Source: Escherichia coli (GTDB lineage: Bacteria > Pseudomonadota > Gammaproteobacteria > Enterobacterales > Enterobacteriaceae). Taken from it: DNA of 64,000 nucleotides. The stretch lies in assembly GCF_009931435.1 (NCBI RefSeq), contig NZ_CP043414.1, one strand, 5' to 3'. Below, piece after piece: positions 8,275-41,345 of the stretch. Made by a program: the position numbers and the translations under genes. The number at the start of each line of letters is the position of its first letter. Within the stretch, counting starts at the first letter, position 1. The notes under the pieces were generated by a model. The model was not told where the DNA came from. It searched no databases and was given only the letters and a program-made list of their open reading frames with translations.

Positions 8275-10428
8275 ATGCTAAGTCCTTTGCTCAAACGCTA
8301 TACCTGGAACAGCGCCTGGCTGTATTACGCGCGTATTTTTATTGCGCTTTGTGGAACCACAGCGTTTCCGTGGTGGCTGGGTGATGTAAAACTGACGATT
8401 CCGCTGACGCTGGGGATGGTGGCAGCGGCGCTGACCGATCTCGATGACCGGCTGGCGGGACGTTTGCGTAACCTCATCATTACGCTGTTCTGCTTTTTTA
8501 TCGCCTCGGCCTCAGTAGAATTGCTGTTTCCCTGGCCCTGGCTATTTGCAATTGGTTTAACGCTCTCTACCAGCGGCTTCATTTTGCTCGGCGGTCTGGG
8601 TCAACGCTATGCAACAATTGCCTTCGGTGCGTTACTGATCGCCATTTACACTATGTTGGGGACGTCACTGTATGAGCACTGGTATCAGCAGCCGATGTAT
8701 CTGCTGGCCGGTGCCGTCTGGTACAACGTCCTGACACTTATTGGTCATCTGCTGTTCCCGGTCCGCCCGTTACAGGACAACCTGGCGCGTTGCTATGAAC
8801 AACTGGCGCGTTATCTTGAGCTCAAGTCGCGCATGTTTGATCCTGATATTGAAGATGAAAGCCAGGCACCGCTGTACGATTTGGCTCTCGCCAACGGTCA
8901 GCTGATGGCGACATTGAATCAGACGAAACTCTCGCTGCTGACCCGCTTACGTGGCGATCGTGGTCAACGGGGAACGCGTCGCACGCTGCATTATTACTTT
9001 GTCGCGCAGGATATTCACGAGCGTGCCAGTTCTTCTCATATTCAGTATCAAACATTGCGTGAACATTTTCGCCACAGCGACGTGCTGTTCCGTTTTCAGC
9101 GACTGATGTCGATGCAGGGCCAGGCGTGCCAGCAACTGTCACGTTGTATTTTGCTGCGTCAGCCTTATCAACATGATCCGCATTTTGAGCGCGCTTTTAC
9201 GCATATTGATGCTGCGCTGGAGCGGATGCGCGATAACGGCGCGCCTGCCGATTTACTCAAAACACTGGGATTTTTGCTGAACAATTTACGCGCTATTGAT
9301 GCCCAACTGGCAACAATTGAATCAGAACAGGCCCAGGCACTGCCCCATAATAATGACGAAAATGAGCTCGCTGATGACAGCCCGCACGGATTGAGTGATA
9401 TCTGGCTGCGTCTTAGCCGTCACTTCACACCGGAATCCGCCCTCTTCCGTCATGCGGTAAGAATGTCGCTGGTGTTGTGCTTCGGCTACGCCATCATTCA
9501 GATAACCGGAATGCATCACGGGTATTGGATATTGCTGACAAGTTTGTTTGTCTGCCAGCCAAACTATAACGCCACGCGCCACCGCCTGAAGTTAAGGATT
9601 ATTGGTACGCTGGTAGGTATCGCCATTGGCATTCCTGTGCTGTGGTTTGTGCCGTCACTGGAAGGGCAGCTGGTGCTGCTGGTTATTACCGGCGTGCTCT
9701 TTTTTGCCTTCCGTAACGTGCAATATGCCCATGCAACGATGTTCATCACACTTTTGGTGCTACTTTGTTTTAACTTGCTGGGTGAAGGTTTTGAAGTGGC
9801 GTTACCTCGCGTAATCGATACGCTGATTGGTTGTGCCATTGCGTGGGCGGCGGTGAGCTACATCTGGCCTGACTGGAAGTTTCGCAATCTGCCGCGCATG
9901 CTCGAACGTGCCACCGAGGCCAACTGTCGCTATCTCGATGCCATACTGGAGCAATACCATCAGGGGCGTGATAACCGTCTGGCGTATCGTATTGCCCGCC
10001 GCGATGCACACAACCGTGATGCTGAACTGGCGTCGGTGGTATCAAATATGTCCAGCGAGCCGAACGTTACCCCGCAAATTCGCGAGGCCGCGTTTCGGTT
10101 GCTGTGCCTTAACCATACGTTTACCAGCTATATCTCAGCCCTCGGTGCTCACCGGGAGCAGTTAACTAATCCTGAAATTCTGGCGTTTCTTGATGACGCA
10201 GTTTGCTATGTTGATGACGCGCTACATCATCAACCTGCTGATGAAGAACGCGTCAATCAGGCATTAGCTGACCTGAAACAGCGGATGCAGCAACTTGAAC
10301 CACGGGCAGACAGCAAAGAACCTCTGGTCGTACAACAAGTCGGGTTATTGATTGCATTACTGCCAGAGATTGGTCGTCTGCAACGCCAGATTACTCAAGT
10401 TCCGCAGGAAACTCCTGTTTCGGCGTAA
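8275..10428 (+). CDS. yccS: putative inner-membrane transporter (FUSC-like)
   Basis: 717 aa from MLSPLLKRYTWN.... An alternative ATG lies at 8266 (720 aa); neither start has a clear SD. Confidence 0.85.
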   Translation: MLSPLLKRYTWNSAWLYYARIFIALCGTTAFPWWLGDVKLTIPLTLGMVAAALTDLDDRLAGRLRNLIITLFCFFIASASVELLFPWPWLFAIGLTLSTSGFILLGGLGQRYATIAFGALLIAIYTMLGTSLYEHWYQQPMYLLAGAVWYNVLTLIGHLLFPVRPLQDNLARCYEQLARYLELKSRMFDPDIEDESQAPLYDLALANGQLMATLNQTKLSLLTRLRGDRGQRGTRRTLHYYFVAQDIHERASSSHIQYQTLREHFRHSDVLFRFQRLMSMQGQACQQLSRCILLRQPYQHDPHFERAFTHIDAALERMRDNGAPADLLKTLGFLLNNLRAIDAQLATIESEQAQALPHNNDENELADDSPHGLSDIWLRLSRHFTPESALFRHAVRMSLVLCFGYAIIQITGMHHGYWILLTSLFVCQPNYNATRHRLKLRIIGTLVGIAIGIPVLWFVPSLEGQLVLLVITGVLFFAFRNVQYAHATMFITLLVLLCFNLLGEGFEVALPRVIDTLIGCAIAWAAVSYIWPDWKFRNLPRMLERATEANCRYLDAILEQYHQGRDNRLAYRIARRDAHNRDAELASVVSNMSSEPNVTPQIREAAFRLLCLNHTFTSYISALGAHREQLTNPEILAFLDDAVCYVDDALHHQPADEERVNQALADLKQRMQQLEPRADSKEPLVVQQVGLLIALLPEIGRLQRQITQVPQETPVSA

Positions 10429-26245: not shown

Positions 26246-27256
26246 TTAGATATGGGTAACGATTTCTTTAATCAGCGGCGGTCCTTTAAAAATAAAACCA
26301 GAATAAATTTGCACCAGTGAGGCCCCCGCAGCAATCTTTTCACGCGCAGCGATAACCGAGTCAATGCCGCCAACACCGATGATCGGTAAGCGACCGTTTA
26401 ATTCCTGAGACAAACGGCGAATAATTTCGGTGCTTTTTAACTGTAGCGGACGACCACTTAAGCCACCGGTTTGATCACAATTTTTCATTCCCTGAACCAG
26501 AGAACGATCGAGCGTGGTATTGGTTGCAATAACGCCATCAATATTATGGCGAACTAAACTATCGGCAACCTGGATCAATTCTTCTTCAGAAAGATCCGGC
26601 GCGATCTTCACGGCGATCGGCACATATTTATGGTGCATCGCTTGCAAATCATTTTGCTTATTTTTAATCGCGGTTAAGAGATCATCCAGCGCTTCGCCAT
26701 ATTGCAGTGTGCGTAATCCTGGGGTATTCGGCGATGAAATATTGATGGCGATATATCCCGCATAGGCATAGATTTTTTCCATACAAATCAGATAGTCATC
26801 TTTACCCTGCTCCACCGGCGTATCTTTATTTTTGCCGATATTAATCCCCAGAACACCATCGTAATGAGCTTTTTTTACGTTCTCAACGAGGTTATCAACG
26901 CCGAGATTATTAAAGCCCATACGGTTGATCAAACCTTCGGCATCTACCAGACGAAAGAGACGCGGCTTGTCATTACCTGGCTGTGGACGTGGCGTGACGG
27001 TACCGATCTCGATAGATCCAAACCCCATCGCGCCTAACGCGTCAATGCACTCCCCGTCTTTATCAAGACCGGCTGCCAGACCAAGCGGATTTTTAAACGT
27101 CAGGCCCATGCAGTTAACAGGTTTCGCAGGCACTTTCTGCCGCACCAGTGCTTCAAACGGTGTTCCTGTAATACGGCGTAATTGCTGAAAAGTAAACTCA
27201 TGAGCGCGCTCTGGATCGAGCTGGAAAAGGGCTTTACGAACGAAGGGGTAGTACAT
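26246..27256 (-). CDS. pyrD: dihydroorotate dehydrogenase (quinone)
   Basis: 336 aa from [21 protein letters not shown]...; the track ORF has a 9-aa extension. Confidence 0.95.
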
Positions 27257-27492
27257 GAACTCTCCTGGATTCCCGGTGTGCAAACCGGGGGCGTATTATG
27301 TGCGAGTTCGGACCAAAAGGGAATTGACCTACGGCAATAAATAGCAAACGTTTTCTTATTGCGCTTTTTTTATGCTTTTTTTGGCTTTGCTTCGTCAGAT
27401 AAATCATTTCGACTCGCGGACGCCCTCTGTCAGACTGACCAAATTGTTATCAATTTTAACAAAACAAGAACAATTGGTTATAAGGAGAGAGT

Positions 27493-30172: not shown

Positions 30173-30964
30173 ATGGCAACGCCAGTGAAGAAGTGGTTAT
30201 TGCGCGTTGCCCCCTGGTTTTTACCGGTGGGCATCGTGGCGGTGTGGCAACTGGCCTCCTCGGTTGGCTGGCTGTCGACGCGTATTTTGCCCTCTCCGGA
30301 AGGGGTGGTAATGGCGTTCTGGTCGCTCTCAGCCAGCGGCGAATTGTGGCAGCATCTGGCGATCAGCTCCTGGCGGGCGTTGATTGGTTTTTCAATTGGC
30401 GGATCGCTGGGGTTGATTCTGGGACTGATAAGCGGACTGTCGCGCTGGGGAGAAAGGCTGCTGGATACCTCAATTCAGATGTTGCGCAACGTGCCGCATC
30501 TGGCGCTGATCCCGCTGGTGATTTTGTGGTTTGGTATTGATGAATCCGCAAAAATCTTTCTGGTGGCGCTCGGCACGCTATTCCCCATTTATATCAACAC
30601 CTGGCACGGCATCCGTAATATCGATCGCGGTCTGGTGGAAATGGCGCGTAGCTATGGATTATCCGGCATACCGCTGTTTATCCATGTGATCCTGCCTGGT
30701 GCCCTGCCCTCAATTATGGTCGGCGTACGTTTTGCGTTGGGCCTGATGTGGCTGACGCTGATTGTTGCCGAAACCATTTCTGCCAATTCCGGCATTGGTT
30801 ATCTGGCGATGAATGCGCGGGAGTTTTTGCAAACGGATGTGGTGGTAGTCGCCATTATTCTCTACGCCCTGCTCGGCAAACTTGCTGACGTCAGCGCGCA
30901 GCTGTTAGAGCACCTCTGGCTGCGCTGGAATCCGGCTTATCATTTGAAGGAGGCCACGGTATGA
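30173..30964 (+). CDS. ssuC: aliphatic sulfonate ABC transporter permease
   Basis: 263 aa from [15 protein letters not shown]..., with an aaggaag RBS. Confidence 0.92.
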
Positions 30965-31728
30965 ATACTGCTCGTCTGAACCAGGGCACACCCTTGTTAC
31001 TCAATGCAGTAAGCAAACATTACGCAGAAAATATCGTTCTGAACCAACTGGATTTACATATTCCGGCAGGTCAGTTTGTGGCGGTGGTGGGCCGCAGCGG
31101 TGGTGGCAAAAGTACCCTGCTGCGCCTGCTGGCAGGTCTGGAAACGCCAACCGCAGGCGATGTGTTAGCGGGTACCACGCCGCTAGCTGAGATTCAGGAA
31201 GACACGCGAATGATGTTTCAGGATGCGCGTCTGCTACCGTGGAAATCGGTGATTGATAACGTTGGGCTGGGCCTTAAAGGCCAGTGGCGCGATGCCGCGC
31301 GTCGGGCGCTGGCTGCGGTAGGGCTGGAGAATCGCGCGCGGGAATGGCCTGCCGCACTTTCTGGCGGGCAGAAACAGCGTGTGGCGCTGGCAAGAGCGTT
31401 GATTCATCGACCGGGTTTATTATTGCTTGATGAACCGCTCGGGGCGCTGGACGCCCTGACTCGGCTCGAGATGCAGGATTTGATTGTGTCACTTTGGCAG
31501 GAGCACGGCTTTACCGTACTGTTGGTGACGCATGATGTGAGCGAAGCGGTAGCAATGGCGGACCGGGTGTTGTTAATTGAAGAGGGAAAAATTGGTCTGG
31601 ATTTGACGGTGGATATCCCCCGTCCGCGCCGGTTAGGGTCGGTGAGATTAGCAGAGCTGGAAGCGGAAGTGTTGCAACGGGTGATGCAGCGTGGGCACTC
31701 TGAACAACCGATTCGGCGTCATGGTTAA
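30961..31728 (+). CDS. ssuB: aliphatic sulfonate ABC transporter ATPase
   Basis: 255-aa ORF with Walker [10 protein letters not shown] and an ABC signature; 4-nt overlap with ssuC. Confidence 0.94.
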
Positions 31729-31729
31729 T

Positions 31730-31925
31730 ATGCCGGATGTGGCGCACAAAAACAGCGGTTTCAACGGATTGTAGGCCTGATAAGACGCGTCAAGCGTCGC
31801 ATCAGGCATTTGGGCACGGCTGCCGGATGCGGCGTGAACGCCTTATCCAGCCTACAAAACCAGCATTTTCAACGGACTTGTAGGCCTGATAAGACGCGTC
31901 AAGCGTCGCATCCGGCATTTGGGCT
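31730..31925. repeat. REP/BIME cluster: three REP palindromes in alternating orientation, with an about 55-bp imperfect direct repeat
   Basis: taggcctgataagacgcgtcaagcgtcgcatcaggca (31771-31807), gccggatgcggcgtgaacgccttatccagcctac (31821-31854), and a second gcctgataagacgcgtcaagcgtcgcatccggc copy (31879-31914). Confidence 0.85.
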
Positions 31926-31933
31926 CAAAAGTA

Positions 31934-34546
31934 TCAAGCCAGTGCTTTAGTTATCTTCTCGTACAGATCGCCAGAGAGATTTTCCAGCCCTTTCAACTGC
32001 TCCAGCGCCGCGCGCATTTTCTCCTGACGTTTGGCATCGTAACGCTTCAGGCGAATCAGCGGTTCAATCAGACGTGAAGCCACCTGCGGGTTACGGCTGT
32101 TGAGGTCGGTAAGCATTTCCACCAGGAACTGGTAACCGCTGCCATCTTCGGCATGGAACGCTGCCGGGTTGCTGCCCGCAAACGCGCCAATCAACGAACG
32201 AATGCGGTTCGGGTTGCTCATGGTAAATGAGCGATGCTGCAACAGACCACGCACCGTCTCCAGCACATTCGCCGCCGGGCTGGTGGCTTGCAGGATAAAC
32301 CATTTATCCATCACCAGACCATCCTGATGCCACTTGTCGTCGTACTCCTGCATCAGCGCGTCACGGCATGGCAGCTGTGCAGCAACCGCCGCAGAAAGCG
32401 CGGCCAGCGCATCGGTCATATTGTTTGCTTCATGGAACTGCTTGCTTACCAGCACGTCAGCCAGATGCGTTTCACCAAAAGCGAGGAAGCGCAGGCAGGC
32501 ATTTCGCAGAGTGCGTTTTGCAATATCTTCATGCTCAACGCGATACTCGCTCTGGTAATTCGCGTTGTAAATAGCCAGCAGCTCATCCGCCAGTTCAGTC
32601 GCCAGAGTACGGGTGAGTGCTTCACGCACTTCGGCAATAGCAATCGGATCGATGATATCGAACAGTTCTGCCATTTCATTGACGGAAGGCAGCGTCAGAA
32701 TTTCTGCCGCCAGCGCCGGATCAATCCTCTCATCGAGCAGCACCGCGCGGAAAGCGTCAGCCACATGCACCGGCAGAGACAGCGGCTGCCCTTGCTGATG
32801 ACGGGCGACGTTGAGCTTGATGTAGGTTGCCAGCAGGCTTTGCGCCGCATCCCAGCGGGAGAAATCATTACGCGCATGACGCATCAGGAAGGTCAGTTGC
32901 TGATCGCTCCACTTATATTCCAGTTTCACTGGCGCAGAGAATTCGCACAGCAGTGCGGGCACCGGCTGGAAGTAGACATTATCAAAGACAAAGGTCTGTT
33001 CCGCCTGGGTGACGTTCAGCACCGAATTCACCGGGTGACCGCCTTTCTGCAACGGGATCACTTTGCCTTCGTTGTCATACAGTTCGATGGCAAACGGAAT
33101 ATGCAGCGGCTGTTTTTCTGCCTGATCCGGCGTAGCAGGCGTGCGCTGGCTGATGGTCAGGGTGTACTGCTCGGTTTCCGGATTATAGTCGTCTTTGACG
33201 GTCACAACCGGCGTACCGGACTGGCTGTACCAACGGCGGAAATGGGAGAGATCGACATTTGACGCATCTTCCATCGCCTGAACAAAGTCGTCGCAGGTTG
33301 CCGCACTGCCATCATGGCGCTCGAAATAGAGCTGCATCCCTTTCTGGAAGTTTTCTTCGCCCAGCAGAGTGTGGATCATGCGAATCACTTCCGCGCCCTT
33401 CTCATAAACGGTCAGGGTGTAGAAGTTGTTCATTTCAATAACCATATCCGGGCGGATCGGGTGCGCCATCGGGCTGGCATCTTCCGCAAACTGCAACCCG
33501 CGCATGGTGCGCACGTTGTTGATACGGTTTACTGCGCGGGAACCAAGATCAGAGCTGAACTCCTGATCGCGGAACACGGTTAAGCCTTCTTTCAGGCTGA
33601 GCTGGAACCAGTCGCGGCAGGTCACACGGTTACCGGTCCAGTTATGGAAATATTCATGACCAATAACGCGCTCAATATCGAGATAATCTTTATCGGTCGC
33701 GGTATCGGTGCGCGCCAGTACATACTTAGAGTTAAAGATGTTAAGACCTTTATTCTCCATTGCGCCCATATTGAAGAAATCCACCGCGACGATCATATAG
33801 ATGTCGAGGTCATACTCCAGGCCGAAGCGTTCTTCATCCCATTTCATGGAGTTTTTCAGCGAGGTCATCGCCCATGGCGCACGATCAAGATTGCCGCGAT
33901 CGACGTACAGCTCCAGCGCTACTTCGCGACCAGAACGCGTGGTGAAGGTGTCGCGCAGTACATCAAAGTCACCTGCCACCAGCGCAAACAGGTAGCACGG
34001 TTTCGGGAACGGGTCCTGCCATTGTACCCAGTGGCGTCCATTTTCCAGTTCGCCTTGCGCAACGCGGTTACCGTTGGAAAGCAGGAACGGGTATTTGGTT
34101 TTATCGGCAATAATTTTGGTGGTAAAACGCGCCAGCACGTCCGGGCGGTCGAGATAATACGTAATATGGCGGAAACCTTCGGCTTCACACTGGGTGCAAA
34201 GCGCATCGCCTGACTGATAAAGCCCTTCCAGCGCAGTATTCGCCGCTGGGCTAATTTCATTAACGATCTTGAGCGTAAAACGCTCCGGCAAATTACTGAT
34301 GACCAGTGCGCCCTCTTCTTCTTTCCAGGCGGTCCACGTCTCATCATTAATATGAACAGAAACCAGTTTAAGATCTTCGCCATCAAGACGAAGCGGAGCA
34401 TCTGATGCACCATGACGGACAGCCTGGCTGACCGCGGTAACGACCGTCTTTTGCGCGTCCAGGTCAAAGGTCAAGTCAATATCAGTAATCTGGTAATCCG
34501 GCGCACGATAATCGTGACGGTATTTGGCTTGTGGCTGTTGAGTCAT
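31934..34546 (-). CDS. pepN: aminopeptidase N
   Basis: 870-aa ORF with an M1 zinc-metallopeptidase HEYFHNWTGN motif. Confidence 0.96.
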   Translation of the reverse strand: MTQQPQAKYRHDYRAPDYQITDIDLTFDLDAQKTVVTAVSQAVRHGASDAPLRLDGEDLKLVSVHINDETWTAWKEEEGALVISNLPERFTLKIVNEISPAANTALEGLYQSGDALCTQCEAEGFRHITYYLDRPDVLARFTTKIIADKTKYPFLLSNGNRVAQGELENGRHWVQWQDPFPKPCYLFALVAGDFDVLRDTFTTRSGREVALELYVDRGNLDRAPWAMTSLKNSMKWDEERFGLEYDLDIYMIVAVDFFNMGAMENKGLNIFNSKYVLARTDTATDKDYLDIERVIGHEYFHNWTGNRVTCRDWFQLSLKEGLTVFRDQEFSSDLGSRAVNRINNVRTMRGLQFAEDASPMAHPIRPDMVIEMNNFYTLTVYEKGAEVIRMIHTLLGEENFQKGMQLYFERHDGSAATCDDFVQAMEDASNVDLSHFRRWYSQSGTPVVTVKDDYNPETEQYTLTISQRTPATPDQAEKQPLHIPFAIELYDNEGKVIPLQKGGHPVNSVLNVTQAEQTFVFDNVYFQPVPALLCEFSAPVKLEYKWSDQQLTFLMRHARNDFSRWDAAQSLLATYIKLNVARHQQGQPLSLPVHVADAFRAVLLDERIDPALAAEILTLPSVNEMAELFDIIDPIAIAEVREALTRTLATELADELLAIYNANYQSEYRVEHEDIAKRTLRNACLRFLAFGETHLADVLVSKQFHEANNMTDALAALSAAVAAQLPCRDALMQEYDDKWHQDGLVMDKWFILQATSPAANVLETVRGLLQHRSFTMSNPNRIRSLIGAFAGSNPAAFHAEDGSGYQFLVEMLTDLNSRNPQVASRLIEPLIRLKRYDAKRQEKMRAALEQLKGLENLSGDLYEKITKALA

Positions 34547-40648: not shown

Positions 40649-40663
40649 GCGTTAAAAACAATG

Positions 40664-40690
40664 AAGCCCGCTGAAAAGCGGGCTTTTTTA
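40664..40690. terminator. terminator between convergent aspC and gloC
   Basis: Hairpin aagcccgc-tgaaaa-gcgggctt followed by ttttta. Confidence 0.75.
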
Positions 40691-40697
40691 TACGTCT

Positions 40698-41345
40698 TTA
40701 CCAGACGGGCATTTCGTCTTGCAGGAAGGGATTATGCAGGCGTTCGTAACCAAGAGTAGATAATGGTCCGTGACCCGGAATAAATGTCACGTCATCCCCC
40801 AGGGGCAGCAATTTATCTTTGATTGAAGAAATCAGTTGATTATGATCGCCACGCGGGAAGTCACTGCGCCCTACTCCGCCTTTGAAAATAACATCGCCAG
40901 AAATCAGCAGTTTTGCCCGATCATCAAAAAACACCACATGACCCGGCGTATGACCAGGGCAATGCAACACCTGTAAAGTCACATTCCCTATGCTGATGGT
41001 GTCTCCTTCGTTCAGCCAACGATCTGGCGTCAGCGGCTGGCACTCTTCCAGACCAAACATACGACTTTGCGCAGGCAAGCCTTGTAGCCAGAACTCATCT
41101 TCTTTTTCCGGGCCAAAAACCGGCACGCCGTAATGTTGCGCCAGTTCCGCCGCTGCGCCAACGTGGTCCAGATGACCATGAGTCAGCAGGATCTGCATCA
41201 GTGTCAGGCCGCTGGCATCAACTTCCTGTTTGATTTTTTCCGCATCGCCGCCAGGATCGACCAGTGCGGCCAGACGGGTTTGTTCACACCAGATCAATGA
41301 ACAGTTCTGGGAGAATGCGGTGACCGGAATAATACGATAGTTCAT
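40698..41345 (-). CDS. gloC: metallo-beta-lactamase-fold hydroxyacylglutathione hydrolase (glyoxalase II paralog)
   Basis: 215-aa ORF with an HxHxDH motif (THGHLDHVG); recognised as YcbL/GloC. Confidence 0.9.

Follow-up and report, generated by a model that had tools for sequence, protein, structure and literature searches.

REP/BIME elements have been known since the 1980s, and both the polymorphism of REPs between strains and their association with IS1397 were published in 1997-2001. The family to which the locus considered here belongs is BIME-2, in which z2 and y REPs face in opposite directions across a short linker S and are flanked by motifs of type s, l or r. Tandem copies of BIME-2 are well conserved within a locus, and their number differs between strains (PMC3333891). 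IS1397 is specific for palindromic units, according to Bachellier (1997), Clement (1999) and Wilde (2001/2003) as cited in PMC1525189 and PMC3333891. At the RNA level, REPs stabilise upstream mRNA and attenuate transcription, and hairpins in 3' UTRs block exonucleolytic decay (reviewed in PMC12306157). REP325 acts as a partly Rho-dependent terminator and as a stabiliser of upstream mRNA. About 30% of convergent spacers contain a REP, and where one is present, expression of the two convergent genes tends to be higher; of the REPs between convergent E. coli genes (78), about 40% lie within predicted bidirectional terminators (bioRxiv 10.64898/2026.03.23.713779). REP325 is also the source from which naRNA4, an HU-associated RNA, was described (PMC4550694).

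The locus studied here is a BIME-2 array, with alternating Y and Z2 REPs, that fills the gap between ssuB and pepN on an E. coli chromosome. The upstream gene, ssuB (30961-31728, + strand; NCBIfam NF008420, 497 bits, cut-off 395), is the final gene of the ssuEADCB operon, with ssuD and ssuC upstream of it, and carries the ssuB annotation in matching E. coli genomes; its stop codon is TAA (31726-31728). The gene for aminopeptidase N, pepN (31934-34546, - strand; TIGR02414, 1256 bits), converges on it and ends in TGA on the - strand (31934-31936), 17 nt from the foot of the last REP. An earlier note on this DNA had placed a REP cluster at the convergent junction of the ssu operon and pepN, and the profile matches to the two genes on opposite strands bear this out. 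The spacer, 31729-31933, is 205 nt long, and the array is wholly extragenic, lying between the two stop codons. Cells express the ssu operon only when starved of sulfate.

The window (the whole stretch of DNA analysed, 64 kb) covers the ompA to kdsB region. It is rather divergent from the complete genomes searched, with a best match of 99.0% identity over 20 kb and most matches at about 97.5%. For a 3.2-kb piece from ssuC to pepN, identity is 98.9% to the best match and 95.7% to K-12. All canonical Y/Z REPs of the window are in the ssuB-pepN spacer. REP half-motifs were found nowhere else in the 64 kb, two other matches being chance near-matches within coding sequence. Besides naRNA4, discussed below, the sole Rfam family above threshold in the window is the PyrD leader (RF02373; 97.9 bits, gathering score 47), upstream of pyrD at 27251-27324 (- strand). 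A match to mir-3130 was dismissed as chance (22.9 bits against a gathering score of 95), and no tRNA genes were found in the window. Two ORFs that cross the array (31737-31883 and 31810-31950) are REP sequence read as codons.

From the ssuB stop, the order of the array is a deleted Z2, a linker of 23 nt, Y, an S linker of 14 nt, Z2, a linker of 24 nt, Y, and 17 nt to the pepN stop. The truncated Z2 (31732-31747, + strand) was recognised from a head-motif match with one mismatch and from the alignment of unit to unit. Its 5' arm, GCCGGATGTGGCG (31732-31744), lies 3 nt past the ssuB stop and its terminal C-AC is also kept, while about 18 nt of loop and 3' arm are deleted; the local fold reaches -5.5 kcal/mol only, and hairpin formation is not possible. 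It is followed by the first copy of the tail-to-tail linker, AAAAACAGCGGTTTCAACGGATT (31748-31770, 23 nt), and by REP1 (31771-31807, - strand), a Y-type REP with a GTAG/CTAC tail that matches the Y consensus without mismatch. The short head-to-head linker, ATTTGGGCACGGCT (31808-31821, 14 nt), is S-like and aligns to the 12-nt linker of the REP325 consensus unit. REP2 (31822-31855, + strand) is Z2-type with one mismatch to the consensus, which falls in the stem (CCAGCC for CCGGCC). The second tail-to-tail linker, AAAACCAGCATTTTCAACGGACTT (31856-31879, 24 nt), to which the first copy aligns, is a version specific to the ssuB-pepN locus. REP3 (31880-31916, - strand) is again Y-type, matching a degenerate Y consensus without mismatch, and its loop is the site of IS1397 insertion in other strains. 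REP1, REP2 and REP3 each end in CTAC, as is usual for REPs, which are imperfect palindromes of about 35-40 nt with a conserved GTAG/CTAC at one foot.

The consensus strings used for Y and Z2 were compared with the REP325 unit of K-12 as a check. Neither string found a match in 100 dinucleotide-preserving shuffles. The palindromes thus do align with the REP consensus, the point on which the earlier note had staked its reading, and its observation is confirmed as real and far beyond chance. Its three REPs in alternating orientation were recovered as -, + and - by the Y/Z2 matches; three is the number of intact REPs, the fourth, internally deleted Z2 having been overlooked. The direct repeat of about 55 bp that it described was also found, both strings being exact at 55 nt (31760-31814) and 56 nt (31868-31923), but these are parts of a longer repeat whose copies span 70 nt (31746-31815, + strand) and 71 nt (31854-31924, + strand), with 66 of 71 aligned columns identical and one indel. 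REP1 and REP3 are embedded in the repeat copies as had been stated, but REP2 lies between them.

A repeat search returned a gap-free 47-nt pair at 98% identity. When 31729-31819 is aligned with 31820-31933, 81 of 87 positions are identical and a single gap of about 18 nt falls inside the first Z2. This alignment, together with the internal deletion of the first Z2, indicates that the region comprises two tandem BIME-2 units of about 109 nt. Tandem Repeats Finder reported no array in 31600-32050, a silence explained by the presence of fewer than two copies and the 18-nt deletion, which put the score below its threshold.

The identity of the array was also examined against REP325 and the Rfam family curated from it. 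The Y-S-Z2 core of the window (31773-31855) is identical to the K-12 REP325 consensus unit at 74 of 83 positions. The REP1-S-REP2 pair matches naRNA4 (RF02564) at 31774-31852 on the - strand over the full length of the model (positions 1-77 of 77), with 82.2 bits against a gathering score of 59.5 and E = 4e-13 for the whole window; on the + strand the match reaches 52 bits. The Y/Z2 matches, the likeness to REP325 and this score above the gathering threshold agree in supporting the REP/BIME identity first proposed for the cluster. The Rfam model, curated from REP325 units, recognises in effect any Y-S-Z2 REP pair, so the match shows REP identity and not function. The high copy number typical of REPs was also seen, a 351-nt query matching at a median of at least 35 places per E. 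coli genome.

RNA folding of 31715-31945 gave an MFE of -103.1 kcal/mol (z = -6.46) for the + strand and -97.9 kcal/mol (z = -6.27) for the - strand, and none of 200 shuffles was as stable as the native spacer. The fold check suggested in the earlier note therefore predicts strong hairpins on both transcripts (z about -6.4). In both MFE structures REP1 forms its own hairpin, and REP2 and REP3 pair in a long REPIN-like hairpin. Taken singly, the intact REP hairpins are predicted at -15 to -22 kcal/mol on either strand, with REP1 at -20 to -22 kcal/mol on either strand and REP2 at -15 to -19 kcal/mol. A consensus scan of 31000-32600 for intrinsic terminators (a GC hairpin plus a U-tract) found no terminator-like site and no promoter-like site; none of the REP hairpins is followed by a T run. 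The same scan detects the hairpin of the K-12 spacer, CCGAATGGCGGC...GCCGCCATTCGG followed by TTATTTAT: the 42-nt K-12 spacer, a 12-bp GC hairpin and then that T run, was scored as a terminator. Without U-tracts after the hairpins, any termination by the array would be indirect.

The positions of the hairpins also bear on translation. REPs that regulate translation, as described by Liang, Rudd and Deutscher (2015; cited in PMC12306157), have their hairpin no more than 15 nt past the upstream stop codon. In the array the first intact hairpin begins 46 nt past the stop of ssuB and REP3 begins 17 nt past that of pepN, both beyond this distance, and the half REP at 3 nt cannot fold. Ribosome stalling by stop-proximal REPs therefore probably does not apply here.

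Variation among strains was studied with a 3.2-kb junction query against 5,426 complete E. coli genomes, from which 60 rows were sampled at even steps down the ranking; one was an irrelevant plasmid match, leaving 59 usable. The spacer is 41-42 nt long in 34 of the 59 rows (including K-12 and O157:H7), 205-206 nt in 19, 193-194 nt in four (including CFT073) and 85 nt in one, and in one it is interrupted by IS1397. In K-12 MG1655 just 42 nt separate pepN and ssuB, and another E. coli genome has a spacer of 307 nt with three units. From this sample and the query searches, the array is carried by about 40% of E. coli and the 42-nt hairpin-terminator cassette by about 58%. Among the 5,426 complete genomes, 2,060 cover at least 80% of a BIME-centred query, and a 45-nt probe across the second linker copy matched in 2,249, at a median of two places per genome. 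These lengths of 42, 85, 193-206 and 307 nt uphold the strain variability that the earlier note had claimed for such elements and had proposed to check by comparing spacer lengths.

The array alleles differ in what they keep of the units. The 193/194-nt allele (CFT073/MS8345 type) lacks 12 nt of the 3' arm of REP3, and the 85-nt allele (strain AH21I008) is this form with both direct repeats collapsed to one. The number of units ranges from one to three, and substitutions that weaken REP stems are common among the alleles. In AST240 (L006 1660-1710), an extra degenerate REP (GCCGGATGCGCGTAAACGCCTTATCAGG) and a duplicated S-like linker lie between REP1 and Z2, which shows that the array can grow one palindromic unit at a time, and not in whole units alone. 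In 2013C-4225 (L003 about 390-450), REP1 carries G-to-A changes in both arms of the inner stem on the + strand (GACAC...GCATC); by inspection of this single sequence, these would give C-A mismatches in the ssuB-sense RNA and G-U wobbles in the pepN-sense RNA.

IS1397 has entered the array in some of these strains. Strains NMBU-W13E19 and CB8671 carry an annotated IS1397 within the REP3 loop (...GATAAGACGCGTCA | IS | GTCAAGCGTCGC...), and AST240, whose array has the extra REP, carries one there too, facing the other way. The junctions at REP3 read ...GACGCGTCA|IS|(G)TCAAGCGTCGC, with a duplication of 3-4 nt, TCA or GTCA. Junction probes that include the locus-specific linker are covered to at least 80% in 152 genomes for the orientation of NMBU-W13E19 and CB8671 and in 50 for that of AST240. 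As IS1397 is present in the REP3 loop in both orientations, there have been at least two independent insertions into REP3. That such elements are targets of IS insertion had been pointed out from the sequence of the window, whose own array is free of an IS; the claim holds at ssuB-pepN itself, where about 200 genomes have IS1397, facing either way, within the loop of the third REP. A literature search found nothing on the ssuB-pepN repeat or on IS1397 at pepN.

The difference between the array and the K-12 form extends into the coding sequence of ssuB. Compared with K-12, the final 30-nt bin of ssuB in the window is 53% identical and all upstream bins are 86-100% identical; pepN is 100% identical up to its stop. 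The last 33 nt or so of ssuB (31696-31728, + strand) are specific to the allele and belong to the same polymorphic cassette as the spacer. The K-12 cassette consists of its ssuB tail plus CCGAATGGCGGCGCTATTGCCGCCATTCGG, and also replaces these last ~33 nt. The SsuB tail ends ...GESETRLRKQG* in K-12, and the BIME allele has another 11-letter tail, equal in length and recognisably homologous, that is common to E. whittamii and E. albertii. The boundaries of the cassettes are sharp.

The opposite situation was seen at another convergent junction, aspC-gloC. Here the window (40649-40700) has only a terminator hairpin, AAGCCCGCTGAAAAGCGGGCTTTTTT, and a K-12-like genome (g62; L053 4651-4871) has about 172 nt extra, in which a Y REP is joined through a long linker to a Z1-like REP in a BIME-1-like arrangement. 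The insert sits in the 3' arm of the aspC-gloC hairpin and is flanked by repeated AAAAGCGGGCT; its linker matches Rfam ES036 (RF02751) with 53 bits.

Species-representative genomes were scanned once with a degenerate pattern for the 3' end of pepN, which returned 42 loci. Convergent adjacency of ssuB and pepN is widespread in Enterobacterales. Two further E. coli representatives, with spacers of 193 nt and of 307 nt (the latter with three units), and E. whittamii, with one of 198 nt, have the same array, truncated first Z2 included, and E. albertii has a decayed single Z2-linker-Y unit of 115 nt together with the BIME-type SsuB tail. The presence of the array in E. whittamii and of its decayed form in E. 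albertii indicates that, as judged from this distribution, it is at least as old as the genus and predates the divergence of these two species from E. coli. Pantoea and Serratia have GC hairpins of 32-33 nt plus T runs at the junction, and Enterobacter and Citrobacter have other inserts there, some of them REP-like; by such comparison, the ssuB-pepN site is a repeated host of elements of this sort.

Two of the outgroup loci have further peculiarities. In E. albertii NBRC 107761 (L010 about 8520-8900), the locus lacks ssuEADC and the greater part of ssuB: the region of the pyrD leader adjoins a short 3' remnant of ssuB, for which tblastn recovers SsuB residues 225-254 only, and then come the decayed BIME and pepN. 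In Enterobacter cancerogenus (L031), (TCGAAG)x6 and then (TCGAGG)x6 directly follow the ssuB stop, with a hairpin and a T run next.

The explanation that we favour, with a probability of roughly 0.85, combines the BIME-2 identity of the array with a role at the ends of the two converging transcripts. The array is probably a two-way transcript-end structure, serving as a barrier to RNA decay and as a partial terminator. Transcription of ssuB or pepN into the spacer would let the REP hairpins form in the RNA, where they may block 3'-to-5' exonucleases and so stabilise the upstream message, and may also attenuate read-through, partly through Rho. The array would in this way stand in for the single GC hairpin and T run of the K-12 allele. 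Recombination between the 70-nt direct repeats, or slippage there, could change the copy number, as might a REP-associated transposase. Selection on the structure is likely to be weak, in view of the REP arms lost or weakened in common alleles and of the decayed copy in E. albertii. The array is dispensable, about 58% of genomes having a plain terminator and about 200 having the array split by IS1397.

The same variability fits a reading of the array as repeat DNA, selfish or neutral, without a local role: a REPIN/BIME copy deposited and amplified by the REP-associated tyrosine transposase or by recombination, tolerated for its place between the ends of two genes, and drifting. We regard this as the less likely reading, but a largely neutral status with incidental effects on its surroundings is a serious alternative. 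The absence of the array from about 58% of genomes, the range of one to three units, the common alleles with REP arms deleted or mutated, the decay in E. albertii and the disruption by IS1397 in about 200 genomes are all as expected if the array drifts, TnpA-REP cleaves and recombines BIMEs in vitro (PMC3333891), and the reverse polymorphism at aspC-gloC shows that gain and loss of REPs is routine. However, the array allele has no other terminator, so that its hairpins would unavoidably affect both transcript ends, and the array is older than the three Escherichia species that have it and has persisted in them; REPs have also been shown in published work to affect the transcripts next to them. 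Nor does a selfish origin conflict with the transcript-end role, as a selfish origin and a local effect can coexist. A primary role at the DNA level, with the array acting as a BIME-2 site for gyrase binding and cleavage that would relieve positive supercoils between the convergent ssu and pepN units, is unlikely, given that ssu is expressed only under sulfate starvation and that the K-12 allele manages without the array. Such a role would nevertheless suit the Y/Z2 architecture of the array and its convergent position, where positive supercoiling would be expected to accumulate, and in-vivo gyrase cleavage of BIME-2 is credited to Espeli and Boccard (1997) in PMC3333891 and PMC12306157.

The full-length match to RF02564 above the gathering score raises the question of whether the array could encode a small RNA like naRNA4, acting in trans by binding HU and helping to condense the nucleoid. 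This is very unlikely: the consensus scan of 31000-32600 gave no promoter-like site, most E. coli genomes are without the array, and a preprint found no measurable nucleoid compaction by REP325/naRNA4 (bioRxiv 10.64898/2026.03.23.713779). It is also distinctly improbable, if slightly less so, that the junction is to be understood as a long-standing 3'-end cassette polymorphism of two alleles, BIME-2 and the 42-nt terminator, each with its own SsuB tail, even though the cassette boundaries are sharp and both alleles are common (about 40% and 58%). Chance or an artefact of assembly can practically be dismissed as the source of the palindromes and the repeat, the REP consensus matches being absent from shuffles and the same array recurring across more than 2,000 independent complete genomes, as well as in other species of Escherichia.

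The transcript-end role thus remains the preferred reading, and it concerns an element of an already known kind, BIME polymorphism and the association with IS1397 having both been published before. The ssuB-pepN array matters little beyond correct annotation, and the sole mildly interesting residue is the sharp polymorphism between two cassettes, which takes in the final ten codons of ssuB. If it is true that both forms persist for different ssu/pepN expression or read-through, they would be a natural instance of REP-based tuning with promoters unchanged. The natural pair of BIME and terminator could be used to test the proposal that REPs are two-way terminator-stabilisers. The spacer is, besides, a convenient length-polymorphic marker, at 42, 85, 193-206 or 307 nt or bearing IS1397.

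Compared with the bidirectional terminator of K-12, the array occupies the same position and presumably does the same job of ending two converging transcripts, but no U-tract follows any of its REP hairpins. With respect to the known target sites of IS1397, the locus shows the expected behaviour and no difference, the insertions being in the loop of a Y REP and in both orientations. In K-12, REP325 (yjdM-yjdN) consists of 5.8 units of 100 nt and is flanked by tandem genes of one operon, whereas the array has about two units of 109 nt, another tail-to-tail linker and convergent flanking genes. The first Z2 is internally deleted and the tail-to-tail linker is a locus-specific version, unlike in a typical BIME-2. 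In all other respects compared, the array follows the BIME-2 plan (Gilson, Bachellier and Hofnung, as summarised in Ton-Hoang et al., 2012, PMC3333891): it alternates Y and Z2 units, has a short head-to-head and a longer tail-to-tail linker, consists of units that are near-identical within the locus and strain-variable in count, and is extragenic at the 3' ends of genes.
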